Below, one piece after another: positions 26,123 to 53,095 of a stretch of 64,000 nucleotides of DNA; within the stretch, counting starts at the first letter, position 1; each line of letters starts with the position of its first letter. The notes beneath the pieces are model-generated. The model had not been told where the DNA came from. It made no database searches and worked only from the letters and a program-made list of their open reading frames with translations. The position numbers and the translations under genes were made by a program. Origin of the DNA: Schmidtea nova (Eukaryota); the NCBI GenBank assembly GCA_044892505.1, contig JBJFYY010000020.1, forward strand, positions 124,001 to 188,000, in the 5' to 3' direction.

Positions 26123-27105
26123 TCACAGCTCATCATAAATGTTAAACTTTACTACTCTTTCTCGAGCCGATGTTGTTGGCTTCATGGATCTTAGAAAACC
26201 TTTGCATACATTGGCTACCTCATCTGCATTTTCTAACGTCTTACAGCTTACACATCCCACCGTTTGTCTAATATTCTCTAGTAACAGCCCTTCTTGAATT
26301 GGATTAATAGTTGTTGTTCCCACCTTCCTTCCTCAAATACGGTTTTAACTAGTCTTCTCAGTACCTTTGCATAAATTGCATGTGTTTCATTTACCCTTTG
26401 TTTTCGGTTTAAGAATTCGTATATATCAAGTTGTTCGTCTTTCCTAGTTTCAAAAATTTCGATTTCTTTAAAATTCTTTGATAGCTTCTTTTCGTCTTCT
26501 AATCCGATATACCAATCTAATGCGCTATAATTTAAAATATATGAGAATATTCGTACTCTCAACTCTGGTGTCCATCCTGATGCTGTTACAAATGCTTATA
26601 ACTGTCAGAAACATGCTCTGAATTTCCATCAAACTGTTTTCTTGCAAATCTTGTTTTAAAACTAGGTTCTAGAGTTCTAGTGAGTTGTTCCTCTAATTTT
26701 GGTTTTTTGTTACACTACTGGTTCGATTTAGAGTGTTGTTCTCAGTTTACTTCATTCTAGAGATGCAGTTTTCTCCTTTATTCCAATTATCGTTTCCCTT
26801 TATTGAATGTCTTTACTCTGAATTGCCCGAAAAGCTTCCCTTCCTCTCCTCTTTGCTGCCATTAGTTCTTCTTCTCTTAAAAAACTTTATTTAGCTGTCG
26901 ACTGTCTGGACCAAGTTTGATTTCCGATTGACTTAATCTTTCTGTTTTAGCTTTGACTGTTTTGTTACTGCCCTATAGTGTTTGCTGATTGATTTCCGAA
27001 TAAAAAATATACTTTTAACCGTCTAGGTGGCCACCTTTGCTCACACAGTTTCAATCAATTAAATGAGCAAATTTTTTCTTCTTTATTCTCTTAAGTGTTT
27101 ACCGA
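26123..27105 (-). pseudogene. Decayed relative of the gag-only LTR family, left part (gag remnant); target of the Polinton
   Basis: ILNYSALDWYIGL...RKQRVNETHAIYAKVLRRLVK resembles the 6314..7075 Gag. 26995-27050 is homologous to 7615-7680. Confidence 0.65.
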
Positions 27106-27860
27106 AGTAGGTAGATGTGTGGAGCCGGGAACAAAGACATTATGACTCATGCGTGGGCGGAAAAAAAAGAACAAAGACCCCCTCCCCCCCGGGGGGGTAG
27201 AAATTTTTTTTGATGAGTCATCGATGAGTCATAGAAATTTTTTTTGATGAGTCATCGATGAGTCATCGATGAGTCATAAATTTTTTTTCAAAAATTTTTT
27301 TTTCGCGCCAAATTTTTTTTTCAAAAATTGTTTTCGCGCCAAATTTTTTTTTCAAAAATTTTTTTTCAGGCAAAATTTTTTTTTGAAAATTTTTTTTTTT
27401 ACAAATTTTTTAAGACAAATTTTTTAAGACGAATTTTTTTTTAACACAAATTATTTTTAGTCCAATTTTTTTATAAGACAAAATTAGAGTCATCAAAAAT
27501 ATTTACAACAGATGTGCAAACTAAACAAAGACATTTTTATATGTGTGCATGTTTAATTAATTATTATTTGTCAAGTATGAAGCTTTTGCACTTCAAAACC
27601 ATCACAGAAGAGGTTCTGCTTCCAGGGTTCTGATCGCAATGTTCTGCTTCCAGGGTTCTGATACTAATTGTTCTGCTACTAATGCTTTTTATTTAATTAT
27701 TATTATCTTTCAAACTAAACAAAGACTTTGCAACATGCGTGCAAGTTAACAAAGACATTGCAACACACGTGCAAGGACTTTGCAACACGCGTGCAACATG
27801 AACAAAGACATTAAAAAATCAAAATTTATTTATAAATATATCGTTGTGTACGTGTACAAA
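27106..27860 (+). repeat. Left TIR of the Polinton (about 755 bp)
   Basis: Reverse complement of about 43801-44825, apart from repeat copy number and a few substitutions. Confidence 0.92.
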
Positions 27861-28407
27861 ATTTAGTTTCAAAATTATTTACATCTGAATTATTACTCGG
27901 AATATTATTCATCGGAATATTATTCATTGTAATATTATTCATCGGAATACTAGTATTTGTCGGAATATTATTCTTTGGAATATTTGAAATCTTCTCCAGC
28001 CGTATGGATGCCGATAACATCATTATAATTATTAATATAAATAAACTTATATAATGTAATACAATTGCTGTTTTTTCGTTTTCAACTGTTTGATTTTGGT
28101 ATCTGACTTCATATTCTTTTTTAACAAATGTTTGATTGATACATTTTAATCTTTCAACTATTTTCATCATTATTTTGTTAATCATTTTTTCAATATCTTT
28201 ATTAATCACATTATTTTTGGAAGGACATTGATTACATTGTAATTTTATTTGATTGCATTCAATGTTTGAGTAAAGACATATATCGTTATAACTCGCGCAA
28301 GTACTATCTTGTTTTCGAAACGGATGGGATGATTGACAATCTTCCAAAGCTTGTTCTCCTTCAGTATTGTCAACACATAATAATAAAATAACTATAATTA
28401 ATTTCAT
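27826..28407 (-). CDS. Polinton accessory type I membrane protein (signal peptide, Cys-rich ectodomain, TM helix, Asn/Pro-rich tail)
   Basis: MKLIIVILLLCVDNTEG; six ectodomain Cys; hydrophobic AIVLHYISLFILIIIMMLSASI; tail of PMNNI repeats. The stop lies inside the TIR. Confidence 0.7.
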   Translation of the reverse strand: MKLIIVILLLCVDNTEGEQALEDCQSSHPFRKQDSTCASYNDICLYSNIECNQIKLQCNQCPSKNNVINKDIEKMINKIMMKIVERLKCINQTFVKKEYEVRYQNQTVENEKTAIVLHYISLFILIIIMMLSASIRLEKISNIPKNNIPTNTSIPMNNITMNNIPMNNIPSNNSDVNNFETKFCTRTQRYIYK

Positions 28408-28471
28408 TTTAAAAACAAAAACTAATATAAAAACTAAATTTGTTCATACTAAAATATTTATTAAAAAACAA

Positions 28472-28888
28472 TTATGCGTATCTTGCATTGTCAACTCTCC
28501 AAATCGGAGTAACAACATCTTTTTTATCAATCTTGTACCCTTGAATAATAACTGTAACGAACCAGTGTTCTTGATCCATGAAATCAATAGTCTGAAAAGC
28601 ATCATGAAACCGAGTTTTTCTGTTATTGATGTACATGGTTTCTTTACATGTCAAATTAACATTCATCTTTGAAAATAATCGATTTAATGCGATAATATCT
28701 TCATTGGCAATAATAACAGCAAGACTGTCATATAAAGATTTTGTTAATTTTACCGGATATGATAATCGATACGGTATTTCATTAACCAAAAAATAAAGTC
28801 GGCTGTCATAGTACATTTGAACTGGTTTTACCTCAGTCTGGTATATTTTTTCTTCGCTTATATCTAGATTTTGTTTTCGTGATTGCAT
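28472..28888 (-). CDS. Conserved Polinton accessory protein of unknown function (probable start MQSRKQNL)
   Basis: Part of ORF 28472..29005. A diverged homolog at 52742-53248 aligns from about this ATG. TGATTGG-N21-TATAAA lies upstream. Confidence 0.72.
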   Translation of the reverse strand: MQSRKQNLDISEEKIYQTEVKPVQMYYDSRLYFLVNEIPYRLSYPVKLTKSLYDSLAVIIANEDIIALNRLFSKMNVNLTCKETMYINNRKTRFHDAFQTIDFMDQEHWFVTVIIQGYKIDKKDVVTPIWRVDNARYA

Positions 28889-29400
28889 GTTGTAAATAGT
28901 GACAATATTTTTTAAAATGTCTTTGTATTTATACTGATGACTGGATGTCTTTGTCCAATCATATTCATGCATTTGTTTTGCACACACTATGCACATGTAT
29001 TGCAATGTCTTTGTTTTATGCGTGCATGTTTAAGTAATTAGTATGTGTTTAGTATGAAGCTTTTGCATATCAAAACCATCACAGAATAGGTTATTCTCAT
29101 AATGTCTGGTTACTAATGTTGTTATTTATTTAATTATTTATTTTATAATACTACTACTTTCTTTCTGAAAAGTATTTAATGAAAAAAAAAAGTTTTTAAC
29201 TTTTATATACAGTTAATAAAAAACTACTACTTTAATGTTTTAATAAAAAACTATTAATATTTAAATAAAATCAATAAAAAAACTTTTATTTAACTAAAAT
29301 GAAAAAGAAAACTAAAATGAATAATAAAACTTTTATTCAACTAATATAACAAAAATGATACAACAAATTACAACAACAACAGCAACAACAACAACAACAT

Positions 29401-30066
29401 TCACATGTCAGATGGTTCGCCACCAAGAGATTGGCAACCATAATCACTATTATTATTATTATCACCATCACAATCTTCTGCCTTTCGATGGCATTGTATA
29501 CAATCCGGTGATTGTGGCGACTCCATACAATCAGATGATGATGATTGAACCGGTTCAGGTGAAAATGGACCATCTAGATTTGGTGCTTCCAAATCTGTTG
29601 TTGTTGTTGTTTCATCATCTGTCGGCTCCGGAGTAGAGTTGGGCCAGGTTTCCTTGACTTGTTCATCCTCCTCCTTTTCCTCATCGATTTTGTCCATTTG
29701 TTGGACATCATAGAGTTTGAGGGAATTCCTCAAAACCCAGATATTAAACTGCCGGATTCTTTCCACGCAGCTCCCGCATTGATAAGCGCACATAATGTGC
29801 TCGGGTACCATTGGGATATCTGTATTCTGGCTCGTCATGTGATCGAGCACAATCTGATTGATATCTATTCCCGTCAAGACCATTATCTTGTACGGGAACA
29901 TCTCCGGAGCCGTGTAGACCAGAGCCGGCATCAGGTTCGGGAATAGCTCCTCCAATTTGCGATAGATAACGTTCATTAATTTATCTGAAATAATAATAAT
30001 ATAAAATATGAAAAATAAATAATTAAAATCCTTACGGCTTTTTATTAGTGTTTGGGTCATCGACAT
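29401..30066 (-). CDS. Polinton accessory protein (Cys/His cluster plus acidic S/T/P-rich tail); probable 51-nt intron at 29985-30035
   Basis: 221-codon ORF. GTAAGG...TTTCAG removes an AT-rich hydrophobic in-frame stretch, giving MSMTQTLIKSHKLMNVIYRK. Confidence 0.65.
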   Translation of the reverse strand: MSMTQTLIKSRKDFNYLFFIFYIIIISDKLMNVIYRKLEELFPNLMPALVYTAPEMFPYKIMVLTGIDINQIVLDHMTSQNTDIPMVPEHIMCAYQCGSCVERIRQFNIWVLRNSLKLYDVQQMDKIDEEKEEDEQVKETWPNSTPEPTDDETTTTTDLEAPNLDGPFSPEPVQSSSSDCMESPQSPDCIQCHRKAEDCDGDNNNNSDYGCQSLGGEPSDM

Positions 30067-30247
30067 AATTGTGAATATAAACTATGTGAGATTGTTCATA
30101 GTATATATATATATATCAAAGAAACACACATGATTTGAAACACACATAATGAACCAATCAGAGTGAAGCATGAACAACATGTCTTTATTCTAACGATACA
30201 CACAGAGCCAATCAGAATCGTGCATTTCTAATGCATCGATATTGCAG

Positions 30248-30715
30248 TCATGAGTCACATGTTAGTATGAAATCAACAAAGGCTTTATCTTCTATAATTG
30301 ATTTTATATCGTAAATAATATCATCAACTATAGTACTATAGTCTTTGTTTTTTAATCCTAATATGACTAATTTCCCACTTGCAAATATATTTACACACAT
30401 GGGATTATATTTGATATATCTCAAAGCTGGAAATAATTCTGGCTCGTAAACACACGGTATTAATTTCGATAATTCATTCAAATTACAAATGAATCCTAAA
30501 TCCGCAGTTACAGTTATCGATTGTATCTTTAAATCGTAAAACTCAACTTGTTCGTCACTAATAAATTCCCTGCATCCCATTATTCTATATCTTCCTGATT
30601 TAAAGTATATTATTGGGTATTTTCCACTTCGATTTACAATTTGCTGGGGTTTTCCTTTTGGAAATTTCATGTGTGATACATCTGTCTTACCCTTGTAATT
30701 AATGTTTCTAATCAT
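30248..30715 (-). CDS. TATA-binding-protein (TBP)-like protein encoded by the Polinton
   Basis: LKIQSITVTADLGF...VYEPELFPALRY...VNIFASGKLVILGLK matches TBP repeat 2 (FKIQNMVGSCDVKF...SYEPELFPGLIY...LLIFVSGKVVLTGAK). IIYFKSGRYRIMGCR matches the end of repeat 1. Confidence 0.85.
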   Translation of the reverse strand: MIRNINYKGKTDVSHMKFPKGKPQQIVNRSGKYPIIYFKSGRYRIMGCREFISDEQVEFYDLKIQSITVTADLGFICNLNELSKLIPCVYEPELFPALRYIKYNPMCVNIFASGKLVILGLKNKDYSTIVDDIIYDIKSIIEDKAFVDFILTCDS

Positions 30716-30808
30716 TACTGGAAATATTTTGAAATGAAATAATTACTTTGAGAACAGGTATTTAAAACAAATATAAACAATAATATTAAGAAAATATAAT
30801 TTTTAAAT

Positions 30809-31432
30809 ATGGAATTAAGAAATGATGCAGTGTTTCAAATTGTTGGTCCGAGCGGGAGTGGAAAAACTTTATTTGTTTGTAAATTATTGCAATCGAAATT
30901 ATTCAAGTCAAAATTTAATAATATTTATTGGCATAGGGGTGCTGACGACGAAAGTGGAATGACACAAGATCAATTTTGTAAAATAAAAATGACAATCATT
31001 AAAGGTTTCGATAAAAACTGGTCATCTAGATTAAAACATGGTGATGTGATTATCATTGACGACTTGTATCAAGAAGCAAATAAAGAAAAGGATTTCAATA
31101 ACTTATTTACGAAAATCAGTAGACATAAAGGTGTTACTGTTATTTTTATAACTCAGAATTTATTTCATCAGGGCGGTAGTCATCGAACTCGTAATTTAAA
31201 TGTTCAATATCTTGTTGTTTTTAAAAATCCTAGAGATGCAACAGTTATTGATTTTCTGGCAAGACAAGCTTATCCTTCTAATCGTAACTTTTTGATTGAA
31301 GCCTTTCAAGATGCTACAAAATCTCCTCATGGATATATTTTCCTTGATTTTACTCAACAATGCAGTGATCATTTACGCGTTAGAACTGATATTTTTAACC
31401 CTGAAGGAGCCATGGTTTATAAACAAAGTTAA
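30809..31432 (+). CDS. FtsK-HerA/A32-like DNA packaging ATPase
   Basis: Walker A GPSGSGKT, Walker B IIIDD, SRHKGVTVIFITQ, RTRNLNVQYLVVFKNPRD. Confidence 0.95.
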   Translation: MELRNDAVFQIVGPSGSGKTLFVCKLLQSKLFKSKFNNIYWHRGADDESGMTQDQFCKIKMTIIKGFDKNWSSRLKHGDVIIIDDLYQEANKEKDFNNLFTKISRHKGVTVIFITQNLFHQGGSHRTRNLNVQYLVVFKNPRDATVIDFLARQAYPSNRNFLIEAFQDATKSPHGYIFLDFTQQCSDHLRVRTDIFNPEGAMVYKQS

Positions 31433-31452
31433 TTCTGTTTGCAATCGTAATC

Positions 31453-31962
31453 ATGTTAATGAAATCTCGAGTAAAGTTTGAGCCATTGATAAAGGCTAGA
31501 ACAAAGAAAGCGGGAAAGAAAACAAAGAAACTATTTACAAAGAAATCTATAAAGAAATCAAGAAAGAAATCCAAGAAAATACTTATGGATAATATTCCCA
31601 AAAATAATTTGAAATCTAATGCTAAACAAGCACATCATCGGAGTTTACCGTTTTTTAATGCATTACTTAAAGCCCCTTCCGTTAGAAGAATGGGTATTCT
31701 TCAATCGTTTCCTAGTTACGTCATCGATGATTTACTCTCTATTTTAATTAAAGTCGTGCGATGTAAAATGAATCTAACTCCATCTAATCGCCGTGTTTTG
31801 AACAAGCATAAAAAACCATTGTTGTCGCTAGTAAACTCAAAAAATAAAAAACTTATGCGCAAAGTAATATATAAACAACAAGGTGGTTTTATCGCAGCAT
31901 TGTTACCATTAGCATTATCTTTATTGGGAGGTGCTGGTTTATTGGGAAAAAGAAAGTCATAA
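31453..31962 (+). CDS. Basic Polinton core/virion protein with an adenain-type cleavage motif
   Basis: Lys-rich, with a C-terminal QQGG|FIAALLPLALSLLG typical of Polinton conserved small proteins. Confidence 0.75.
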   Translation: MLMKSRVKFEPLIKARTKKAGKKTKKLFTKKSIKKSRKKSKKILMDNIPKNNLKSNAKQAHHRSLPFFNALLKAPSVRRMGILQSFPSYVIDDLLSILIKVVRCKMNLTPSNRRVLNKHKKPLLSLVNSKNKKLMRKVIYKQQGGFIAALLPLALSLLGGAGLLGKRKS

Positions 31963-32017
31963 ACAATGGGTCAATCATTACCTAATTTAAATTTAAACTT
32001 TAAATCTTCTTGTTGCA

Positions 32018-33067
32018 ATGGAGAAGATCTGGACGAACCCAAAAGACGACGCCGGTTTCGGTGGAGTCGAAAAGCTAAGGAAAAAAGCACAGAAGTCGAA
32101 ACAACAGACACAAAGTTGGTTATCGGGGCAACTTGCATACAGTCTAAACAAACCGATGTTGAAACGGTTTCCAACTCGAGCATATAAAACATATAGAATC
32201 AATGATTTGTGGCAAATGGACTTGATGGAAATGATTCCGTATTCCAAAATTAACAAGGGGTACAAGTATATTTTAACATGTATTGATGTTTACAGTAGAT
32301 TTTCTCGAGCAATTGGAGTCAAATCAAAATCTGCTAATGACATGGCAATCGCTATCAAGACAATGATGAAAAAGGATCGGCCAACTAATTTACAAACTGA
32401 TTTGGGTAAATTTTAATTTAAATTTATAAATTTAATATTTTTTTTTTTAGGAAAGGAATTTTACAACAGTAAAGTCAAGGAAGTTATCAAGGGAATAAAT
32501 CATTATTCGGTATTCTCACAATTCAAAGCCGCTCATGTCGAGAGATTTAATCGAACTTTGCGTGATCGATTGAAAAAATACTTTGTTTTTAAAGGCAATA
32601 AAACCTGGATTAATGTCTTACCTCAATTGATTCATAGTTATAATCATAGTGCTCATCGGGGTATAAATGGTAGGAAACCGGCAGAAGTAGTTGATACTGA
32701 AAATATTGTGAGTGAAGTGAAAGTAAAGAAACCAAAATATAAAGTTGATGATCATGTTCGAATTAGCAAGATTAGTACATCGCCATTCGTTAAAAATTTT
32801 GATAATAATTGGAGTGATGAGGTATATCAAATATCGAAAGTCAACACAGTGCAGAATCCTGTCATGTATACTATTCGTGACTCTGATAACAATATAATCA
32901 GCGGCAAATTCTACGAACAAGAATTACAAGTTATTCCTAAACCTACGATATTTAGAATTCAAAAGATTTTGAAGACTAAAATGGTGGGTAAGGATAAACA
33001 ATACTATGTCAAATGGCATGGATATAAAGAACCATCATGGATCTCGTCAAAAAATCTAGTAAAGTGA
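32018..33067 (+). CDS. Retroviral-like (c-)integrase with C-terminal chromodomain; join(32018..32405,32451..33067)
   Basis: WQMDL (D), spliced QTDLG|KEFYN (D), VERFNRTL (E); chromodomain YYVKWHGY...SWI. The 45-nt GT-AG intron restores the frame. Confidence 0.95.
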
Positions 33068-34080
33068 ATTTTTACACTATTTTACCGAGCAATAGTTGTC
33101 CGAATATACATCCGGATAATACCGCAAGTAAATTCATGGTGAATTTACCTAATCCAATTTATTTAAACGGAAATTGGGAAGTTGCTCTAATGGATTTTAC
33201 ATTTGTTTACCAACCTTTTCCATATTATAGTTATTGTAAAATTTATTACTATAAAAAGAAAACAATTGTTGCAAATGCGTTTTTCTCGATATATAATAAT
33301 AATGGCCATCTGAATGTTCCAACTCACACAATCGATCCGGATATCGAATTGTGGCAACGAGGTGGAAGAATATTTCTCACGTGTAATATTGTTCCGTATA
33401 CAATTACATTTAATGATCTTGAGATAGCAAAACGAATGGGAAGTAATAAACTGACAATAACATGTAATCAAGAAGAATGTGAATTCAAAGTTATGCAAAA
33501 CTTGGCCAGTAATGATGAAGAAATAATTACTTTTACTATATCGTATGATCGTGAAGAAGGACATGTATTCACATTCAAGGAGGAGTTGTATATAACGCAT
33601 CTAGATGAATTACAGAAATATATTAGTGATAATTGTTCGGATATTTTTACAGTTGTCGAATTAAATAAATTGTTCAAATTCAAACTCAAAGAAAAAATCA
33701 CTAAAGTCAGATTTGATAAATACTTGGTCAATACATTGGGATTAGATAAGGATACATTTACCGATAAAAATGTCATTTCTGGTGTTCGTCAACCGAAAAT
33801 ATCTAAACTTCATCAGCAATTATTCGTGTATACAAACATTATCGAACCCATTATTGTTGGTGATTCCTTGGTTCCTTTACTAAAATCGGTATGGATTGAA
33901 AAATACGAGCCAGATGAAATTGTTCAAATAGTAATGGATAATCCAATGTATTTATCTGTTTCAACATCCTGTATAAACAATATAGAAATAAATATCCGGG
34001 ATGACAGCGGAAGATTTATAAAATTTCCAAAAGATTCAAAAACTCACTTAACTCTACATTTTCGAAAAAACGATGAGTAA
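33037..34080 (+). CDS. Minor capsid protein (penton, single jelly-roll)
   Basis: FYTILPSNS...NTASKF.V.LP.PI.L.GNWEVAL; LFVYTNIIEP.IVGD..VPLL; NPMY...I.NIEINIRD..G. Confidence 0.88.
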   Translation: MDLVKKSSKVNFYTILPSNSCPNIHPDNTASKFMVNLPNPIYLNGNWEVALMDFTFVYQPFPYYSYCKIYYYKKKTIVANAFFSIYNNNGHLNVPTHTIDPDIELWQRGGRIFLTCNIVPYTITFNDLEIAKRMGSNKLTITCNQEECEFKVMQNLASNDEEIITFTISYDREEGHVFTFKEELYITHLDELQKYISDNCSDIFTVVELNKLFKFKLKEKITKVRFDKYLVNTLGLDKDTFTDKNVISGVRQPKISKLHQQLFVYTNIIEPIIVGDSLVPLLKSVWIEKYEPDEIVQIVMDNPMYLSVSTSCINNIEINIRDDSGRFIKFPKDSKTHLTLHFRKNDE

Positions 34081-34456
34081 TCCCGATATAGTTTCAATGT
34101 ACAGTGATAGCCAGACTGGTGGTGAATTACCGTATTTTGTCGGTAAACAGTATGGATCAGGTTGGTTAAAAACTATTGGGAGATTTGCACTTCCAATTCT
34201 TAGACGACTAGGTAATTTCGGAATGAATACCGCTAAGGACGTTATCATGAAAGATAATAAAATATTACCGTCATTGAAAACCAATGCTTTGGCCGCAGTT
34301 AATAAAGCTATACCTGCTGTAACTCAAATGCTTCCTACAATTACAAGTATGTTTACAAAAAATAAGGAACCGGAATCTGTACCGGTAGGACCAAGACGTA
34401 AACGAAAACGTATAAACAAACGAATGAAAGGTCATGGAACTATATTTGAAGAATGA
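34073..34456 (+). CDS. Polinton conserved small virion protein (amphipathic, adenain-site containing)
   Basis: QTGGELPYFVG.QYGSGWLKTIGRFALPILRRLG motif; basic C-terminus. Confidence 0.78.
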   Translation: MSNPDIVSMYSDSQTGGELPYFVGKQYGSGWLKTIGRFALPILRRLGNFGMNTAKDVIMKDNKILPSLKTNALAAVNKAIPAVTQMLPTITSMFTKNKEPESVPVGPRRKRKRINKRMKGHGTIFEE

Positions 34457-35673
34457 TTTGCGGTAAATCTGAATTATGTCTTTTTGATCGACCATCACCT
34501 CAAGCAGTTATTGAATATGGGGCGTTTGAAGATGTGTTTCCAATGAATTCAATTACAGATAGTAGAAATGATGTTGAATTTTACATTAATGGTTCTCAAA
34601 CCGAATATTTGGATTTGAACGATACATTATTGTCCGTTACAATTAAAGTTGTAGATAAAGATAAAAAAGCTCTAGCCGATGCGAGTGATGTAGTTCCTAA
34701 TAATTACCTGTTTCATACACTTTTCAAAGATGTAATTCTCGGATTTAATAATATAAAAATCGAGGGTGGAAACAATACATATGCGCACAAGGCAATAATC
34801 GAAACTATTTTAAATTATACGAATGATGCGAAAGAAACATGTCTTACTCCAATGGGATATGGTTCAGCTGACGATCGGAAAAAATGGATCAAGGGATCTA
34901 AACTTTTCAACATGTGTTCGTCATTACAACTGGATTTTATGGATCAACCTAAATACTTACTTCCCGGAGTTAATGTACATATTAGATTGAAGCGATCTGA
35001 TTCTGCATTATCATTGAAATCGGTAGGTGGGAAACCTGTTATCCAAATAGTTGATGCAAAATTAATGGTAAGAAGAGTTCGATGTGAATCTTCAGTATTG
35101 GCCGGTCATCAAATTGGTTTAAATAAAAAACATGCAATTTATCCTCTCAAATCAAAAGAAATCGTATCGTTTGCTATCGGTAAAGGAGCATCGTCATTTT
35201 ACAAGGAGAAAATATTTGGGGATAGACGAATGCCTAATTTCATTCTTGTGGCTTTTCAATCCGAAAATCAATATAACGGATCTTATACCGAGTCAACATC
35301 TACATTCAAACACTTTAATGTGACTTCATTAACATTGTCGAAAAATACCGATTATCGTGAAACATATACCCAGGATTTTGAAAATGATAATTTTAGTGCA
35401 TCATATATGCAAAGTCTTGTCCGAAATCTAGGTTATTTGGATAAAAACTTGAATTGTGGTATTGGTCTAGATGAATTTAAATCTAGTTATCCATTCTTTA
35501 CATTTGTTCTGGCTCCCGATTTTGATTTGAATCAAAGCCAAATCCCTCAAAACGGAAATTTACGACTGGATATAAAGTTTGCAAAACCTATTGATGAACC
35601 GGTTCATGTAGTTATTTATGGAGTTTTTGAAAATGAAGTTCAAATTACTGCCAATAGAACAATACTGGTTTGA
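34453..35673 (+). CDS. Major capsid protein (double jelly-roll, PY)
   Basis: KSELCLF...VEFYING...YLDLNDTLL; LDFMDQPKYLLPGV; GNLRLDIKFAKP. Intact 406 aa. Confidence 0.93.
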   Translation: MICGKSELCLFDRPSPQAVIEYGAFEDVFPMNSITDSRNDVEFYINGSQTEYLDLNDTLLSVTIKVVDKDKKALADASDVVPNNYLFHTLFKDVILGFNNIKIEGGNNTYAHKAIIETILNYTNDAKETCLTPMGYGSADDRKKWIKGSKLFNMCSSLQLDFMDQPKYLLPGVNVHIRLKRSDSALSLKSVGGKPVIQIVDAKLMVRRVRCESSVLAGHQIGLNKKHAIYPLKSKEIVSFAIGKGASSFYKEKIFGDRRMPNFILVAFQSENQYNGSYTESTSTFKHFNVTSLTLSKNTDYRETYTQDFENDNFSASYMQSLVRNLGYLDKNLNCGIGLDEFKSSYPFFTFVLAPDFDLNQSQIPQNGNLRLDIKFAKPIDEPVHVVIYGVFENEVQITANRTILV

Positions 35674-35742
35674 GCTTAAACATTACTAGTTTAAGTTCAA
35701 ACAGTATAAATGATCAAAGTTATTATTTTTATTATTCTTATT

Positions 35743-36121
35743 ATGGAGTAAGATTTTTAATTGATTAGTTATTTATTTTTTAAATAGTTCTTTTCAGGTA
35801 TTACAACAAGGTAAAAAACTATTGGGAAATCAATTTATTGGAGTATTTCCTCTGGATAAAATACCTTATTTGAAAATGAATCAAGCCATCATTGTAAATA
35901 CTCAGACATCTACATTGGGCGGTGAACATTGGATTGCAGTTTATGTGAAACCAGATCGAATACATGTATTTGATCCATTTGGATATTATTATCCGAATTT
36001 ACTTGTTCGAAAACTACAAACTATCGGTAAACCTATTGTGTATAATAGAATTCGGTATCAGCATCCCTTAACAATCACTTGTGGTGAACATTGCCTTGCA
36101 TGGTTGAAATCAATGTTATAA
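35743..36121 (+). CDS. Adenain-like cysteine maturation protease; join(35743..35747,35788..36121)
   Basis: A 40-nt GTAAGA...AAATAG intron gives MDSFQVLQQGKKLLGNQFIGVFPLD. Catalytic GEHW, FDPFG and Q....TCG. Confidence 0.9.
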
Positions 36122-36153
36122 ACAATTTATTTTAATAAACTTTATTTGAAAAA

Positions 36154-36555
36154 ATGTCTTGTTATTTTATCGATTTTTATGGATATAATGAAATGGGTGG
36201 AACAACAATTAAGGAATTATGTATTATGAATGTTAATAATATTTTCACACCTCAGTATTATATATACAGTGATTTATCTTTATGGCCTGATCGTATAGAA
36301 TCGTTTGAAGGACAAGATTATTTTTGCCCAAAATGTATAATGGATGATATCACGGATAAAGGAGCTATTTTCTATGTAACAGATCATGAAAAGATGCATG
36401 TTTTGAAGAAGTATTTCCCCAAATTACGATTAATTAAATATAATTATAAAGAAGTTGAATATGTTCCTGAAAACATTTCATGTCCCTATAAAGATCATTG
36501 CATGTGTGCCTATAAAGGGTGCTTGTCTGCTGTTGTCGATTATTTAAAGCAATAA
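36154..36555 (+). CDS. Polinton-associated small protein (IDxxG...IKEL N-terminus, Cys/His C-terminus; possibly a DEDD/RNase H-like fold)
   Basis: YFIDFYGY...IKELCI...; IFYV...EK..VL; CPYKDHCMCAYK. Fold assignment is from memory of similar proteins and unverified. Confidence 0.55.
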   Translation: MSCYFIDFYGYNEMGGTTIKELCIMNVNNIFTPQYYIYSDLSLWPDRIESFEGQDYFCPKCIMDDITDKGAIFYVTDHEKMHVLKKYFPKLRLIKYNYKEVEYVPENISCPYKDHCMCAYKGCLSAVVDYLKQ

Positions 36556-36915
36556 ATGTATTTTATTATTTTTTATTATTTTTATTAATTATTATTTTAA
36601 TTAATTATTATTTTTATTATTATTAATTATAAATATTATTATTTTCATCACAAAGGCATGACCAGTGCGTGATCAATGCGTGATAAGCACATGTCATGTC
36701 TTTGTCACGATACAAAGCAATATCGTGACGTCAAACACACATAAACAAAGGTATATTATGTGTGCAGTATGTGTGCATGTATTTGTCTATCCTATCTCGA
36801 TTCTGATTGGTCGGTTAATAAATTTCACCTTTATATAGTATATACTTGAATTATTTCGTCACTTTTTACTCACAAATTTTTATAATCAATTTCAAATTAT
36901 TTTAAAGAAGAAAAT

Positions 36916-38955
36916 ATGCAAAATTTAAATCTAATTATGCCACGAAGAATCGCCGGAGGTCTAAAAAGTAAAATTATTAATTTTTATTTTATTATATTTA
37001 TATTATGTTATTTCTAGGTGTTAATTTAGCTAATAATATGTCAGGATTTTTGATAAACGGACTCAGAAATCAAAATAACTTAATTGGTAAAAATTTATAC
37101 TATTTTATTTTGTTTATTATTAAACTTTTAGGTAATAATTTCCAAAACGTAGATATAGATGCCTCTCTTATTGATGATGATGTACCGATTATTGATGTCC
37201 CGATTATTGATGTTCCGAACTATACTGATGTCCCGAACTATATTAATGGACAGAGTTTTAAAAACTCTAAAAAATGTAATTTTTATATTAGTATTTTATA
37301 TGATGATAATGTAATTATATGATTTTTTTTTTTTAAAAAATTTAATTACTATCTTTTAAATAAATTATTAATATTATCAATGATGATGGTACTTTTTTAT
37401 AATGAAGAAGATGAATTTTTGTTATTTTAATGAAGAAATTTAATGAAGAATTTTAATGAAAAAGAATGAATTTTTGATGTTTATTAATGAAGAACAAGAT
37501 GATATTTTAAAGACGAAATAATTTTTATTAAGAAGATGAATCTTTTGATATTTTATGAAATAAAGAATAATTTTTTTTATATTTTAATGGTATTTTAATG
37601 ATGAATTTTAATGAAGAAGATAGTATTTTGATATTTTAGGATATTTTTATGAAATAATTAATTTATTGATATTTTAATGATGAATTTTAATGATGAATTT
37701 TAATGAAGAATTATAATGAAGAATCTAATATTTTAATGATGAAAATGAATCTTTTGATATTTTAAAGATATTTTTTATGAAAAAGATTAAGTTATTTTAA
37801 TGCTATTTTATTAATATCTTATAATGGAATAATTATGTTTTTTTTTATGTATAGATATAAAAAACGTTGATTATTATAATATATTTTTTTTTATGCATAG
37901 ATATAAAAAATTATATTTAATATAATATGTAAATGTTTTTAAACAATTACCTATTATTTTAAATATAAATAATTGTTCAAAGAAAAAAAATAAATAAATA
38001 AAAGTTATTATTATCAAAAAATATTATTGTTTAAAATATTTATTAAATAATAAGTTAAATTATATATTTTATTTTAATGTGATTATTTTTTAATTGTAGC
38101 CTTTGATTTAATTTTTTTTCATCATATTCAGGCTCAATATATCAAAATCTTTGCAATAATACTTTCCATAGTGACTGTCATGTCATTATGGAAAAGTATT
38201 ATTCATATAAATATAATGGTGTCACCCACCTCCTCTGCCCAAAATGTAAAATTATAGAAGTTAAACCTTATAAGGAATTTTATCTTTCACATAGGTTACA
38301 TCTTTCGCAATACCAACCTTCTAAAAAATCACTTTTTAATTCTTTATATAAAAATTATATTACTAATAACAATCTTAATAATAATAATAATAACAACATT
38401 AATAATAATAATACAAATAATAGAAATATTTTACAAAATAATAATTTACAAAATAATACAATTACAAATAATTTACAAAATACAAATAATTTACAAAATA
38501 CAAATCATTTACAAAATACAAATACAAATAATTTACAAAATACAAATAATATTAATACAAATAATTTACAAAATACTAATAATCAAATTAATAATCTAAA
38601 TAAAATCAATACACCTAATTTAAATAAACGTAAAAATACAACATTAATGGATTCAGTTCCTAAAAAACTGATCATAATCGACATCAGCGATGATGAAGAT
38701 NNNNNNNNNNNNNNNNNNNNNNNNNNNNNNNNNNNNNNNNNNNNNNNNNNNNNNNNNNNNNNNNNNNNNNNNNNNNNNNNNNNNNNNNNNNNNNNNNNNN
38801 NNNNNNNNNNNNNNNNNNNNNNNNNNNNNNNNNNNNNNNNTGATGAGGATGATCTTATTTATAATAAAAGTAGTAATATCAATATTATATCTGACATAAT
38901 CGTCAATGATGATGAATTTGACGATTATGTTAATATTATAAATAATAATAATTAA
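36916..38955 (+). CDS. Predicted multi-exon Polinton gene: join(36916..36967,37018..37086,37132..37275,38132..38955)
   Basis: Three phase-1 GT-AG introns (50, 45 and 856 nt) give an open frame with DVPII/DVPNY repeats, C..C.FH..C...CPKC, an Asn-rich linker and IIIDISDDED. It spans an N gap, so the frame beyond 38700 is uncertain. Confidence 0.5.
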
Positions 38956-38961
38956 ATTGGA

Positions 38962-41900
38962 ATGGGTATTGTTGAAGTTACTTCCGACTTGAACGATACC
39001 CATTTTATTATAAAAATGGATGTTTCTAACTTATTATTAAAAACGGTCTCTGTGCCGGATATATTATTAGAGAAACTAAACTCATATATAATTAAATTAA
39101 AATCAGTTAAAATTCAATTTTGTCTCAAGGTAGAATTTGAGAAAGATGATCAATTACAATCTTTTGTCATCTCAAATTCTGCCAGAGAGTGGAGTGATAC
39201 ATTTATTGAGGAAGGTATCACTAATTTAAATGAGAAGATTGTCCAGATTAACGAAAAGGGGAGTAATTGGACAATCTCCAAAATCGAATATATTAGTTTT
39301 TTAGTCACTAAATTTTCAGAAATTAGTCGATTGAGCGGCAGCAGTTATATCGAAACGCCGAATACTTTAAGAAATTTAAGTTGCCTTGTTAATGTCCAAA
39401 ATAACGACACCTATTGCTTTTTATATAGCTTTTTAGCAGTAGTTAAATACGATAGTATTGAACGCCAATACAGACATAGGACTACTTCTTATGATCTTTC
39501 CCAAATTGTTTTTGACCCCAACGACATGCCCATGAAATTAGTTAACATAAAGAAATTTGAGAGACAAAACAGTGGCTATAGTATAAATGTCCTGACATAT
39601 GACGAAAAGGCCCAAATAGATGTAAGCGAAAAAGACAATGATGATAATGTCGTCCTTAAACACCCCTTTATAGATATAGTCTACCGTAGTAAAGTAGTCG
39701 GGGCTATTCCCATAAATTTGCTTCTTTTGGAGAAAAAAGATAATTTTCATTATCTTGCGATTACCGACCTGAATCGCTTTTTGAATTGTAGAAATAGTGC
39801 CATCACCCCAGTTAGGATTTGCAGTCAATGGTGCCCTCGTTGCTTGAATGGGTTTAGGAACGACGAAGCCTTTAATCGTCATAAGGGTCTTTGTACCAAA
39901 AATCAGTTGGGTACTACACTGTACACCTTACCAAAAAATAAATTTTTAGAGTTTACTGATTGGAAGAAAACAGTAACTCCTCCTTTCGTAATATATGCAG
40001 ATTTCGAGGCAATATTACCTAAAGATACTGTTCACCACCAAAAACATCTTCCTATTGCTGCAGGTCTACTTCTCATTAACAACTTTACTGGGGTGAGAAT
40101 ATACAAATCTTTTGTAGGGCTAGACTGTGTTGATCAATTCTTAAGAGAAATTGAGTCAATCAGTCGGTATATAGTAACACCTTATTATTATAAAAATTAT
40201 CAAAAACGCATGACTATTACTGCGACCCAACAGCGACAATTTGATAATAGCACTAATTGCTATTTATGCAAAAAACTTTTAGTGGCACCGGTTAGGGATC
40301 ACGACCATTTCACCGGTCTTTATATTGGAGCAGCCTGCTCAGAGTGTAACAAGTCCCGGCAAATACGACACTCTTTGCCCGTAATTTTTCATAACTTGAA
40401 GGGTTACGATTTGCACCATATTTTAAAATATGGTCTTTCCAAATATAACAGTTGGAATATTAGTTGTATACCCTTGACCAGCGAAAAGTTTTTAAGTCTT
40501 TTCGCGTACATCGATAGCCTGACCGTAAAATTTATTGACTCTTATCAGTTTGTAAGTGAGTCTCTAAATAATGCAGTAAAAACACTTACTAGCTTACCTT
40601 TAACAAACTCTGAATTTCGAGGCACTATAGTCACTGCCAAGGGCATTTTTCCATACGACGCTGCCACTTCTTTAGAAGTTTTAAAATCAACCTTGTGTTT
40701 ACCCCCCAAATGGAAAGATATAACTGCTGTCGAGTATGCTGCTGCCCATAAAATCTGGCAAGAAACATCATGTACATCACTGTACGATTACATGATGGTT
40801 TATTTGAAATTGGACGTTTTTTTATTAGCCGATTATTTCCAACAATTTCGGGTAAAATCTATTAACCATAACAGGCTTGAGCCTTTAAATTTTCTCGGAA
40901 TTCCCGGCATGTCGTGGAGTTCCGCTTTATTAACACTTGACTCTCCTATCGAGCTCCTCACCGATATGGAGATGTATAACTTTTTCGAGGGCGGTATTCG
41001 CGGCGGACTAACGTTTGTCAATAAACATTATGTCAAGACGAGCCCGGATACCGCATTACTATATATTGACATTAATAATTTATATGGGTGGGCCTTAAGC
41101 CAACCCCTGCCTTGTGGTAATTTTGAGTGGGTCACTGATGACCAATTATTAAATAACATCGTTTGTGAGTGCACATCGGAAAATCTCGATACACTTCATT
41201 ATGGTTACACCATAGAAGTGGATTTGGAAATTCCGGCATCGATTCACGACAAACTGGATGATCTTCCAGTTGCCGCTGAAAAGATGTGTGCACCGGGATC
41301 CAAGGTTGAGAAGCTGTTGCTAACGCATCTTCCAAAGAAGAATTATGTTCTTCATTGGCGGCTTCTGCAACTATTTATTAAAATTGGTGTGAAGGTAACG
41401 CACATACATCGCGCTATTAAATTTTCGCAAAATAAAATATTTTATAATTATATTAATATCAACACCAGTTTACGAGCTGCATCTACAAATAAACTAGACA
41501 AAAATTTCTACAAATTATTAAATAATAGTCTATACGGGAAAACCGTAGAGAATTTAAAAAAAAGAATTAATTTAAGACTGTGTAACTCGGCACAAAAACT
41601 GCTGACTTACACGTCAAAAGCTAATTTTAAAAAAACTACTAAAATAGACAATGACCTCATCTCTGTATTGCTTCAGAAGGAATCAGTATGTTTGGATAGA
41701 CCCAGCTACATTGGACAAACCGTACTGGATTTATCCAAACTTCGTATGTACCAGCTGCAGTATGAAGAGTTACAAAAATATCGTAACGACTTCAACTGCG
41801 AAATTAACATCGTTGCTGGGGATACTGATTCCTTCTTCTTGGAAATCAAACATCTTGACCTTAACACTCTTTTGACCGCCATGATTCGAGATAGGCTTTT

Positions 41901-42408
41901 GGATACCTCTAATTACGACACTCGTCATACATTGTATAGTAGGTCCCTTGATTCTGTGATTGGCAAATTTAAGGATGAGAATAAGGGTCTACTGTATGAT
42001 GAGTGGGTTTTCTTAAGACCTAAGTGCTATAGTCTTATGGGAGACGAGGCCTGCATGAAAGCGAAGGGGATCTGTTTAAAAGATGCAGGTCTCACACACC
42101 AGTCTTACCTTGACTGTTTTTTAAACGATAAGATATATAATGTCCCCCAGTTCCGCACTACGAGCAAAAATCACCAGCTCTTTAGTATAAAAAGCAATAA
42201 GAGAGCCTTATCTTGTAGGGACGATAAGAGGAACTGGGTGGAAAAAAATAAAAGTTTGGCGTATGGCCACTATATGGGGGGTGACACCAATATATTTATA
42301 GGTGATGATGGATCAGAACAGCAGCATCTTCAACAACAACAACAACAAGGTCCGTCTGATGACCCTTATGATTTCTACGATCCGACTGCTAGGGACTACT
42401 TCGGATGA
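38962..42408 (+). CDS. Protein-primed family B DNA polymerase (pPolB)
   Basis: Exo I YADFE, Exo II FHNLKGYD, Exo III YLKLDV; pol YIDINNLYG, KLLNNSLYGK, GDTDS; EndoVII-like Zn insert CYLC...DHDHFTG...AC..CN; N-terminal ND..CF and HY residues. 1148 codons with no stop. Confidence 0.97.
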   Translation: MGIVEVTSDLNDTHFIIKMDVSNLLLKTVSVPDILLEKLNSYIIKLKSVKIQFCLKVEFEKDDQLQSFVISNSAREWSDTFIEEGITNLNEKIVQINEKGSNWTISKIEYISFLVTKFSEISRLSGSSYIETPNTLRNLSCLVNVQNNDTYCFLYSFLAVVKYDSIERQYRHRTTSYDLSQIVFDPNDMPMKLVNIKKFERQNSGYSINVLTYDEKAQIDVSEKDNDDNVVLKHPFIDIVYRSKVVGAIPINLLLLEKKDNFHYLAITDLNRFLNCRNSAITPVRICSQWCPRCLNGFRNDEAFNRHKGLCTKNQLGTTLYTLPKNKFLEFTDWKKTVTPPFVIYADFEAILPKDTVHHQKHLPIAAGLLLINNFTGVRIYKSFVGLDCVDQFLREIESISRYIVTPYYYKNYQKRMTITATQQRQFDNSTNCYLCKKLLVAPVRDHDHFTGLYIGAACSECNKSRQIRHSLPVIFHNLKGYDLHHILKYGLSKYNSWNISCIPLTSEKFLSLFAYIDSLTVKFIDSYQFVSESLNNAVKTLTSLPLTNSEFRGTIVTAKGIFPYDAATSLEVLKSTLCLPPKWKDITAVEYAAAHKIWQETSCTSLYDYMMVYLKLDVFLLADYFQQFRVKSINHNRLEPLNFLGIPGMSWSSALLTLDSPIELLTDMEMYNFFEGGIRGGLTFVNKHYVKTSPDTALLYIDINNLYGWALSQPLPCGNFEWVTDDQLLNNIVCECTSENLDTLHYGYTIEVDLEIPASIHDKLDDLPVAAEKMCAPGSKVEKLLLTHLPKKNYVLHWRLLQLFIKIGVKVTHIHRAIKFSQNKIFYNYININTSLRAASTNKLDKNFYKLLNNSLYGKTVENLKKRINLRLCNSAQKLLTYTSKANFKKTTKIDNDLISVLLQKESVCLDRPSYIGQTVLDLSKLRMYQLQYEELQKYRNDFNCEINIVAGDTDSFFLEIKHLDLNTLLTAMIRDRLLDTSNYDTRHTLYSRSLDSVIGKFKDENKGLLYDEWVFLRPKCYSLMGDEACMKAKGICLKDAGLTHQSYLDCFLNDKIYNVPQFRTTSKNHQLFSIKSNKRALSCRDDKRNWVEKNKSLAYGHYMGGDTNIFIGDDGSEQQHLQQQQQQGPSDDPYDFYDPTARDYFG

Positions 42409-42990
42409 TGTCAATACTGATGACGATGGCAAGGACGAGAATAATAAATTGAAAAAAAAAAATCAAAAGAAAAATAATTCAAAAACCAAAAAAAAAAAAA
42501 AAAAAAGAAAATAACCAAAAAGATATGAGAATGTACAATCGGCCCTCTTCAGGGCCACAATTTATGATTGTATAACAAATAATAAAAAAAAATTTAGATA
42601 ACCGAAAACAGAAACGAAATAATGAAAACAGAACCCAAATAAAAAAAATAATTAAATAAATAAAAGATTAAGAAAACCGAAAAGAAACCAATAATGAAAA
42701 TTAACAGAAAATGAAAGGAAACAAATGATGAAAAGAAAAAATATTGTGCACGAAATAATGGTCCTCTTTAGGGCCTTCAAATTATGATTGTAATATAAAT
42801 TGCGCAATCAATTAAAACTACGGATTTATTAGTTATTTTTTTTATGTATCATTTATTTGTATAAGTTATTAATATTTTTTATAATTTTTTTTATAAGTGA
42901 TTAATATTTTTTTATAAGTTTTTATAAGTTATTATCTTTACTTTTTTTTATAAGTTATTTTAATAAGTTATTATTATTAAAAGTTTACAA

Positions 42991-42991
<1 letters not shown>

Positions 42992-43082
<91 letters not shown>

Positions 43083-43115
43083 AAGTATTTATAATTATTA
43101 TTATTAATATTACAA

Positions 43116-43180
<65 letters not shown>

Positions 43181-43196
43181 AAGTATTTATAATTAT
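42992..43196. repeat. (ATT)n microsatellite running into a gap
   Basis: Long pure ATT tracts interrupted by ACAAGT units. Confidence 0.95.
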
Positions 43197-43800
43197 NNNN
43201 NNNNNNNNNNNNNNNNNNNNNNNNNNNNNNNNNNNNNNNNNNNNNNNNNNNNNNNNNNNNNNNNNNNNNNNNNNNNNNNNNNNNNNNNNNNNNNNNNNNN
43301 NNNNNNNNNNNNNNNNNNNNNNNNNNNNNNNNNNNNNNNNNNNNNNNNNNNNNNNNNNNNNNNNNNNNNNNNNNNNNNNNNNNNNNNNNNNNNNNNNNNN
43401 NNNNNNNNNNNNNNNNNNNNNNNNNNNNNNNNNNNNNNNNNNNNNNNNNNNNNNNNNNNNNNNNNNNNNNNNNNNNNNNNNNNATTACANNNNNNNNNNN
43501 NNNNNNNNNNNNNNNNNNNNNNNNNNNNNNNNNNNNNNNNNNNNNNNNNNNNNNNNNNNNNNNNNNNNNNNNNNNNNNNNNNNNNNNNNNNNNNNNNNNN
43601 NNNNNNNNNNNNNNNNNNNNNNNNNNNNNNNNNNNNNNNNNNNNNNNNNNNNNNNNNNNNNNNNNNNNNNNNNNNNNNNNNNNNNNNNNNNNNNNNNNNN
43701 NNNNNNNNAATTATAGTTATTATTACGAGTATTTATTATTATCATTATTATTAATATAATAATTATTATTAATATTATTATTTTGATTATTACTATTATT

Positions 43801-44825
43801 AATTTGTACACGTACACAACGATATATTTATAAATAAATTTTGGCTTTTTAATGTCTTTGTTTATGTTGCACATGTGTTGCACGCATGTGTCTTTGTTTA
43901 GTTTGCATGTGTATTGCAATGTCTTTGTTCATGTTGCACGCGTGTTGCAAAGTCCTTGCACGTGTGTTGCAATGTCTTTGTTAACTTGCACGCATGTTGC
44001 AAAGTCTTTGTTTAGTTTGAAAGATAATAATAATAATAATAATAATTAAATAAAAAGCATTAGTAGCAGAACATTTAGTATCAGAACCCTGGAAGCAGAA
44101 CATTGCGATCAGAACCCTGGAAGCAGAACCTCTTCTGTGATGGTTTTGAAGTGCAAAAGCTTCATACTTGACAAATAATAATTAATTAAACATGCACACA
44201 TATAAAAATGTCTTTGTTTAGTTTGCACACCTGTTGTAAATATTTTTGATGACTCTAATTTTGTCTTATAAAAAAATTAGACTAAAAATAATTTGTGTTA
44301 AAAAAAAATTCGTCTTAAAAAATTTGTCTTAAAAAATTTGTAAAAAAAAAATTTTCAAAAAAAAATTTTGTCTGAAAAAAAATTTTTGAAAAAAAATTTG
44401 GCGCGAAAAAAAATTTTTGAAAAAAAAATTTGGCGGGAAAAAAAAAATTTTTGAAAAAAAAAATTTGGCGCGAAAAAAATTTTTGAAAAAAAAATTTGGC
44501 GCGAAAAAAATTTTTGAAAACAAAAATTTGGCGCGAAAACAATTTTTGAATAAAAAAAAATTTGGCGCGAAAAAATTTTTGAAAAAAAAAATTTGGCGCG
44601 AAAACAATTTTTGAAAAAAAAAATTGGCGCGAAAAAAAAATTTTTGAAAAAAAATTTATGACTCATCGATGACTCATCAAAAAAAAATTTATGACTCATC
44701 GATGACTCATCGATGACTCATCAAAAAAAATTCTACCCCCGGGGGGAGGGGGGTCTTTGTTCTTTTTTTTCCGCCCACGCATGAGTCATAATGTCTTTGT
44801 TCCCGGCTCCACACATCTACCTACT
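43801..44825 (-). repeat. Right TIR of the Polinton (about 1025 bp) with an expanded internal tandem repeat
   Basis: Inverted copy of the left TIR with 8 TTGGCGCGAAA-type units versus 2 on the left. Confidence 0.92.
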
Positions 44826-51659: not shown

Positions 51660-52741
51660 AATACTTAATTTCAAAATTAGAAAAAACTGTTCACAATTGG
51701 AGTTCAGAATATTGAGGAGCATATGCTGTTCAAAGTTTTCGAGAGCCGGTATCATTTAGTGCATTCAATGTATGTCAGTTTCATACTTTGCTCATCCTAT
51801 TTTGATTTATTAGGCACTGGTCAATGCCCTGGTTACCTATGTTTCTGTTCTATTGTTGATTTTATGTAAAAATATAGACTTTTCTTGGAAGAGGTCAATG
51901 AACTTTCGATCACTGACAAAATTATCACATGTACTAAAATGAATTTTTATCTTTTTATGTTTAATTTCTTGACCTTCCGAGTCACTAACTTGCTGGGATA
52001 TCCCAGCTTATTGTGATGTAAGTAGTCAGTGTAAGCTCACGCGTTTGAAGTGAATTCCCTTTTACTGCCCAACTAAATGTTGTCAGAGCGATATCGAAGT
52101 CTAGACTCATACACACGTAGATGTGAGAGAACGGCCGCAGGTTTATCCGCAAGATTTTTATATTAAAGATTTTGTTTAACTAAATTTTTATTTTTACTTT
52201 TTTTGTTTTCAAAATAAAAGCTCCTTTAAATATTAGAAAAATATGCATGAAATATTAGCGAAGTTAGCGATGAGAAAAGATTGAATGCGAGTTTTGTGAT
52301 GTAACGAAGAATGAACGGTAAGTGCAATCTAAGATCTGAAATCACAATTNNNNNNNNNNNNNNNNNNNNNNNNNNNNNNNNNNNNNNNNNNNNNNNNNNN
52401 NNNNNNNNNNNNNNNNNNNNNNNNNNNNNNNNNNNNNNNNNNNNNNNNNNNNNNNNNNNNNNNNNNNNNNNNNNNNNNNNNNNNNNNNNNNNNNNNNNNN
52501 NNNNNNNNNNNNNNNNNNNNNNNNNNNNNNNNNNTTTGCAAACAATTAGCAATACAAATGCCTCATATTAGTCATACATGTACACACATTAAAAGTCGTG
52601 AACTTTCGTACATATAAAACAGTTGCAATCAAGTTGCACAACACATGCATGTCATATGCAATACAAATGCGCGAATCTGATTGGTTGCACAAAAACAATG
52701 ACTAGTATAAGTAACCGAACAAAACTAGTTTTAGTCATAAA

Positions 52742-53015
52742 ATGCAAAATCTTTTCAGCAAATCAAGTCCAATTAAAGATTCAGTTAAAGTGAAACCAGT
52801 TAAGAATGAAACCAAATAAATTCAAACCAAATTTGATTTACGACCGGTTCAGATATTTCACGATTATCAAATGCTTTTCTTGGTAAATGAAATCTAATTC
52901 AAGATGCCGTATCCAGTAAAGTTGTCGACTTCGCAATGTATCAAACTTAATCGGTCAGCTTTATAAAGATGTCGGTGCAATCACTAAAATGTTAATGGAA
53001 ATTATCTTGCAATGA

Positions 53016-53095
<80 letters not shown>

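Follow-up and report, generated by a model that had tools for sequence, protein, structure and literature searches.

The 64,000-nucleotide (nt) stretch of the Schmidtea nova genome analysed here (assembly GCA_044892505.1, contig JBJFYY010000020.1, positions 124,001 to 188,000; hereafter the window) contains a Polinton/Maverick element that encodes its own TATA-binding protein (TBP)-like protein, and it raises the question of which factors, those of the host or those of the element, read the element's promoters. Two genes of this Polinton are preceded by an inverted CCAAT box (TGATTGG) followed after 21 nt by a TATA box, an arrangement that a preliminary description of the window had regarded as an exactly spaced promoter class of Polinton accessory genes, read by NF-Y and possibly by the element's TBP. 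The evidence points to two promoter classes instead. The CCAAT-TATA pair marks replication genes and probably serves as a promoter for host RNA polymerase II, with the host's NF-Y and TBP as its readers; a different box, YATAAAC, marks the structural genes, and the element TBP is its predicted reader. The element and its CCAAT-TATA sites are the following:

27106..44825, Polinton/Maverick copy with ends AGTAGG...CCTACT and the 6-bp target duplication TACCGA (27100-27105, 44826-44831)
28928..28961, minus strand, P1, TGATTGG-N21-TATAAA, promoter of the single-stranded DNA-binding protein (SSB) gene, conserved in 55/58 upstream regions
30108..30216, minus strand, P2, two TCTGATTGG boxes, the proximal one 38 nt from TATATA, with a short tandem duplication in the spacer
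36804..36838, plus strand, P3, TGATTGG-N21-TATATAG, inferred promoter of the DNA polymerase unit, 9/11 regions
52678..52711, plus strand, P1 orthologue, TGATTGG-N21-TATAAG, upstream of the broken SSB gene (52742-53248) that belongs to a diverged Polinton lineage

TGATTGG, 21 nt and TATA are present at each of the three places reported earlier (minus 28961-28928, plus 36804-36838, plus 52678-52711), against a mean of 0.10 in shuffled sequences, none of which reached 3 in 100 trials; TGATTGG by itself occurs 15 times in the window. P1 and P3 both lie within the complete Polinton copy with its long inverted repeats. Downstream of the 52678 site, which resembles P1 (promoter DNA 75% over 51 nt), lies a disrupted homologue of the 28888 gene (tblastn 57% over 30 aa, E 1e-8). 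Two independent promoters plus one orthologue are therefore present in the window, and the third site shows conservation of one promoter and not a third invention. The two TCTGATTGG boxes upstream of the open reading frame (ORF) 29401..30066 also exist (30160, 30214) and, as had been noted, lack the 21-nt spacing; nor does any ATTGG..TATA pair occupy the promoter position at the capsid, ATPase or protease starts in the window.

Throughout the 1.25-Gb genome TGATTGG-N21-TATAWA was found 18,795 times versus 184 for the reversed control, N20 5,142 times (961 reversed), N22 6,148 times (458 reversed) and N23 6,823 times (643 reversed), numbers that are copy numbers of high-copy repeat families and not independent events; most N23 rows among the matches listed are N21 sites re-detected through TATATA. 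With TATAWAW as the second box, spacers of 10-19 nt total 3,301 versus 2,135 reversed (about 330 per spacing) and those of 24-33 nt 9,668 versus 2,462. The forward CCAAT orientation, summed over 24 spacings, gave 12,119 versus 3,215, with no dominant spacing among the matches listed.

Comparison of Polinton loci indicates that three positionally equivalent promoters are kept across lineages whose SSBs fall to 48% identity. Upstream of the 28888 gene (P1) the pair occurs in 55 of 58 regions, with spacers of 21 (49), 20 (3) and 24 (3), and upstream of the polymerase N-terminal ORF (P3) in 9 of 11 (19-21, 24 and 27, with 28 and 30 in two further loci); many of these loci were retrieved via the pattern itself, which inflates its presence at P1 and P3. 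P2, upstream of the 30066 gene, was mostly carried along with the loci and is thus the least biased promoter, and also the most variable one: 43 of 49 regions have the pair, with spacers of 20, 23, 24 and 24 in four clusters and of 36-41 in four others. The spacing is therefore not exactly 21 nt, as had been proposed; 21 is the mode, 20-24 are common, and 27-30 and 36-41 also occur. What stood of the proposed early promoter class is the pair itself, CCAAT plus TATA before non-structural genes of diverged lineages, without the fixed spacing.

Within the pair, conservation is concentrated in the boxes: across five P1 lineages, identity is 93% in the TATA hexamer and 55% in the spacer. The TATA boxes of this class read TATAWATA, and the flanks over 42 spacer clusters read ATTC-TGATTGG-YYGA, in agreement with what we take to be the NF-Y consensus, so that a CCAAT core with presumed NF-Y-type flanks is conserved in place upstream of TATA. 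The host encodes NF-YA (PF02045, 4 matches), and NF-Y may well bind these boxes; transcription would start some 30 nt after TATA, although the position of initiator motifs showed no distinct peak at +30. Only 5% of planarian promoters are reported to have a TATA box (PMC10558129).

The pair is not confined to Polintons. When the first 30 N21 sites were examined as loci, 28 turned out to belong to Polintons or their derivatives and 2 did not. Of 20 sites hand-picked for unlike spacers, 17 (16 assigned by ORF or blastn, 1 by eye) lie inside a repeat of 3.2-3.9 kb that has TG..CA ends and 4-bp target duplications, the motif being some 350-550 nt inside the repeat. Two pairs of such repeats are long terminal repeats (LTRs): the members of a pair are 99.9% identical over the 1.6 kb compared, lie about 24 kb from each other and flank ORFs for gag, fusion-env, protease, reverse transcriptase, RNase H, integrase, ankyrin and TRAF-RING domains; an assignment of the repeat to Penelope, DIRS or Ginger elements was dropped once the paired LTRs had been found. 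By domain order, not by a tree, these elements appear to be Burro-like giant Gypsy elements. The Burro elements of planarians are described with the same domain order, a length of 25-30 kb, fusion-env in the polyprotein before the protease, and ankyrin and TRAF-type domains (PMC6431247). Twelve LTR copies from a protein search included 8 with N21 or N22, 1 with a changed box at N22 and 3 with no site. Rfam, run on 15 non-Polinton loci, returned 5S rRNA only, and no TBP match was found in six LTR-element stretches, which cover the elements only partly.

Because the LTRs of Burro-like Gypsy elements share the CCAAT-TATA geometry, its reader is likely to be host NF-Y with host TBP. The earlier proposal, a Polinton-specific class of exact 21-nt geometry with NF-Y and the element TBP as readers, may draw on 21 being the genome-wide mode, on the predominance of Polintons among the first 30 loci, and on the fact that a TBP encoded by one element could act on LTRs in trans. 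It is nevertheless distinctly improbable: the geometry is identical in giant Gypsy LTRs without a TBP match in the stretches examined, TBP-bearing relatives of the Polinton have other spacers (10-11 nt with the inverted box, 16-18 nt with the forward one), the first genes would be needed before any element TBP exists, and the structural genes are marked by a distinct box, YATAAAC.

Shared geometry might also reflect descent and not convergence, through exchange of a promoter module between Polintons and Burro-like LTRs or through duplication between P1 and P3. The extended flanks are alike (GATTC before the pair, CAG or TAG just ahead of TATA), Polintons and LTR elements nest in one another, and in one lineage the P3 position is occupied by a second SSB gene, which bears an intron. 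Against this, P1 and P3 do not align past words of 10-18 nt (E 0.22 or worse), the 42 spacer clusters are less than 60% identical to each other, and the flanks of LTRs and Polintons yielded no blastn match near the motif, which makes common descent improbable.

Some further features of the giant LTRs were noted. About 150-330 nt past TATA they have an intron and, after it, a conserved segment rich in hairpins that ends in a purine run, a possible structured RNA with no Rfam match at the gathering score. They also have spliced ORFs, among them one for a conserved coiled-coil protein that matches no Pfam family (9,322 first-look candidates). None of 30 right LTR ends compared enters a shared internal region; therefore, solo LTRs are abundant.

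The genes that follow P1 and P3 are not accessory, as they had been called, and belong with replication; they are listed here together with the gene behind P2:

28472..28888, minus strand, 138-aa OB-fold single-stranded DNA-binding protein of the T7 gp2.5/Enc34 type (predicted fold)
29401..30066, minus strand, intron-bearing gene driven by P2, no Pfam family
36916..36967, plus strand, first coding exon of 52 nt, ending in phase 1 at a GT donor
38112..42408, plus strand, phase-1 splice acceptor (exon starts at 38132) followed, in a single frame, by the polymerase N-terminal ORF and the putative family-B polymerase ORF

A profile search found 82 relatives of the 28888 protein, which by sequence alone has no match in Pfam, PHROGs, PDB, Atlas or a word search. 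Its structure model (pLDDT 92.9, 77 sequences) has as top four VIA matches DUF2815 (Z 7.7), African swine fever virus CP312R (Z 7.4), Enc34 SSB (Z 7.2) and T7 gp2.5 (Z 6.9), with root-mean-square deviations of 2.6-4.5 over 98-122 aligned residues, Z values under 8 being middling; Foldseek placed Enc34 SSB first (E 0.011) and 44 viral models matched at E<=0.001. On the strength of this OB fold the protein is predicted to be a gp2.5-type SSB. The short exon after P3 would join the polymerase frame by a phase-1 splice from 36967 to 38132. The acceptor at 38132 was seen in the eight upstream regions compared, other lineages have a similar run of short exons, and one lineage has a single ORF of 1348 aa. 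The polymerase ORF itself (1148 aa) contains motifs, read by eye, that we take to be those of family B, and Pfam gave no polymerase family; the window copy has a stop at 38953-38955, upstream of this ORF. Since its genes are those for the SSB and, by the proposed splice, the polymerase, the CCAAT-TATA class marks replication genes, as expected of an early class.

The rest of the element centres on a divergent gap between the TBP-like gene and the ATPase:

30248..30715, minus strand, TBP-like protein of 155 aa (PF00352, E 9.5e-14)
30772..30779, plus strand, late-type box TATAAACA between the divergent TBP and ATPase genes, 37 nt upstream of the ATPase start
30809..36555, plus strand, structural/packaging block: A32-like ATPase, 31453 gene, Met-Gly ORF, integrase, minor and major capsid, protease, 36154 gene

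The structural genes carry no CCAAT and have YATAAAC in common instead. Besides the box before the ATPase, which is present in all 41 of the upstream regions from this genome, YATAAACA occurs in the block at 31418, 31870, 31958, 33972, 34411 and 36117 and TATAAATG at 35705. The plus strand of the block has 7 boxes versus a shuffle mean of 1.7 (0 of 300 shuffles reached 7); over the whole window YATAAACA is not enriched (19 vs 13.1), the signal being confined to the block. Eighty metagenome loci around a TBP-like gene contain the same gene set as the window Polinton. Counted as lineages de-duplicated at 80% protein identity, with a background of 5.3%, they have YATAAAC upstream of the ATPase in 15/16, the major capsid in 7/7, the minor capsid in 8/9, the integrase in 9/14, the 31453 gene in 6/8, the 34073 gene in 6/6 and the 36154 gene in 7/10; on the opposite strand it was found before none of the structural genes, and before the TBP gene in 0/42.

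The box is concentrated in the ends of upstream ORFs, at 4.6 per kb in the final 150 nt of structural ORFs versus 0.25 elsewhere (19-fold). There it is translated in two frames, as YKQ/HKQ and as xIN, and thus the constraint acts on the DNA. About a third of the boxes (19/59) begin with C, a distant clade has CATAAAC, and the seventh letter is C, or T at a few sites. A variant TATA box before structural genes that lack an upstream CCAAT agrees with a late-box system of the herpesvirus type.

Location near the 3' ends of structural ORFs would also suit a variant polyadenylation signal of the preceding gene, TATAAA and CATAAA being known variants of AATAAA. The box before the ATPase, however, is not such a signal, because the neighbouring gene is divergent and no co-oriented gene ends there (41/41 regions); other boxes lie inside ORFs ahead of the stop, and in 13 of 15 ATPase cases the distance to the next ATG is -32 to -53. 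A role in polyadenylation is accordingly very improbable indeed.

The candidate reader of YATAAAC belongs to a large clade of proteins of 145-155 aa. Its second TBP repeat keeps EPELFP and IFASGK and has invariant changes at several neighbouring positions, which presumably face DNA in cellular TBP; its N-terminal repeat is shortened, and HMMER aligns only the second repeat to cellular TBPs. The TBP gene itself has the CCAAT-TATA pair in 0 of 22 upstream regions of this genome. In work on MELD viruses, a figure legend mentions a TBP-like gene (PMC8502044; preprint 10.1101/697771).

Alternatively, host TBP alone might read both classes, CCAAT plus TATA as a strong activated promoter and YATAAAC as a weak bare TATA that fires as template copies rise after replication, the element TBP being a decoy or having another job. 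The first six letters of TATAAAC do fit the TATA consensus, and the shortened N-terminal repeat of the element TBP is in keeping with such a job. This account has difficulty, however, with the 19 of 59 boxes that start with C, with a seventh letter (C, rarely T) narrower than in the TATAWATA of the early class, and with the absence of YATAAAC before the TBP gene in all 42 lineages, and we consider it unlikely, though deserving of serious attention.

Under the two-class explanation, host NF-Y and TBP/TFIID would fire P1-P3, possibly aided by the arrays in the terminal inverted repeats (TIRs):

27106..27825, left TIR, with arrays of TTGGCGCG, TGACTCA and ACAAAG
43855..44825, right TIR, with 7 TTGGCGCG, 6 TGACTCA and 8 ACAAAG

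TTGGCGCG, which we take to be E2F-like, has 9 copies in the TIRs and none in the 46 kb outside the element, and TGACTCA, presumably AP-1-like, has 12, beside ACAAAG/TTGCA repeats. An integrated copy would then first make SSB and polymerase with host factors alone, these would replicate the element, and the element TBP could subsequently recruit polymerase II to YATAAAC and turn on the block of capsid, ATPase, protease and integrase. In its boldest form, the proposal is a herpesvirus-like cascade, common to the animal Polintons of this clade and packed into 18 kb, in which a CCAAT-TATA geometry tuned to the host, on which the giant LTRs have converged, is followed by a miniature TBP of altered specificity that drives every virion gene through YATAAAC boxes at the ends of upstream ORFs. 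We rate this version, with its early and late timing, as tentative, falling a little short of even.

Several results weigh against the two-class reading, beyond the copy-number character of the genome counts and the retrieval bias at P1 and P3. The window family expanded with a 38-nt spacer at P2 (36-38 nt in all 33 copies), so that promoter does not require the geometry. TGATTGG-N20-22-TATA was found in 0 of 30 host histone loci and 0 of 8 HSP70-family upstream regions, a CATTGG-N21-TATAAA occurring once, 562 nt upstream in one HSP70 locus. The protease has YATAAAC in just 3 of 7 metagenome lineages, and TATAAAC itself is usable by host TBP. Metagenome CCAAT-TATA pairs have modes of 10-11 nt inverted (6/15) and 16-18 nt forward (6/15), and helical periodicity of these spacers is not significant (p 0.06-0.5). 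Finally, no TBP-less Polinton was found: scans of viral contigs with capsid plus ATPase gave no relatives, and the viral-contig TBP scan gave one locus, without Polinton genes.

By itself, the CCAAT-TATA motif belongs to a familiar promoter type; its geometry is unusual and is shared by different elements. Inverted CCAAT boxes upstream of TATA, bound by NF-Y, occur in retroviral LTRs and adenovirus, and the adenovirus E2 unit places SSB and polymerase under a promoter of their own, joins a short first exon to the polymerase ORF by splicing and has E2F-like sites. The window Polinton would be similar to E2 in these respects; it differs in having a predicted T7 gp2.5-like SSB, a CCAAT-TATA distance much shorter than in adenovirus or retroviral LTRs (about two helical turns here, one in the relatives), and a geometry common to two unrelated superfamilies in one host. 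The more surprising part, beyond the early motif, is the matching late box and element TBP. Beta- and gamma-herpesviruses are described as having early promoters of host cis-elements plus TATA, and late promoters consisting of a bare variant TATT box read by a virus TBP-like protein (BcRF1/ORF24/UL87; PMC4893493). The proposed early/late split and the own TBP-like protein are alike in both systems; the Polinton TBP, in contrast, is a sequence-recognisable homologue of 145-155 aa, its box is YATAAAC and its binding is putative. The likeness is one of working only. For animal Polintons, a literature search that excluded supplements and most subscription journals found no account of promoter classes, of splicing in the polymerase gene or of a target box for the TBP, and no CCAAT-TATA distance rule was found in a search that excluded supplements and repeat-database reports. 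Co-repression of planarian Polintons and LTR elements by SMEDWI-2 has been reported (PMC8532177).

A two-class promoter map of this kind would provide named cis-elements and a candidate trans-factor for the switch of a Polinton from silent insert to virions. Moreover, two unrelated superfamilies of selfish elements that use one inverted-CCAAT/TATA distance in thousands of copies constitute a natural read-out of the spacing preferred by the host, in an animal group with few defined promoters.

Like other members of the Polinton/Maverick (adintovirus) group, the window element has TIRs, a 6-bp target-site duplication, rve integrase (Pfam E 4.8e-8), A32-like ATPase (Pox_A32, E 6.8e-7) and C5 protease (Peptidase_C5, E 5.4e-6). 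Its family-B polymerase and jelly-roll capsids are putative, the major capsid giving a DJR-like match below the cut-off (E 0.0072). The integrase of this copy has a stop, or a short intron, at 32414-32416. A small ORF at 31966-32187, with a Met-Gly start and a basic patch, overlaps the integrase start in another frame, is conserved in relatives and may encode a myristoylated virion protein. The arrays of the TIRs resemble a cell-cycle enhancer, if the site labels assumed above are correct, and an 83% copy of TIR sequence is located upstream of P1 (29003-29097). One metagenome relative has an ORF (225-719) that resembles, by eye, a ubiquitin-conjugating enzyme and has YATAAAC upstream. A palindromic, non-autonomous Polinton derivative carries on both arms an N21 promoter and an intron-bearing SSB homologue, facing inward, and the small contig that carries the locus C20:240213-243913 has a second, inverted copy of it about 89 kb away, with 100% identity across the 701 nt searched.

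Outside the Polinton, the window includes a 56-nt tandem array at 8456-9470 (18 copies, 97%), a small inverted-repeat element (17617-17739 with 19342-19447) and a Gypsy gag-pol relic at 48170-51534, directly before the SSB relic. Among the host loci, 13 of the 30 histone loci carry a ACCGCAACGTA-like motif, usually 14-24 nt before TATA, which is a candidate histone promoter element, and HSP70 profile positions 209-420 gave more than 50 dispersed matches within long ORFs, as though a mobile element carried a captured HSP70 fragment.

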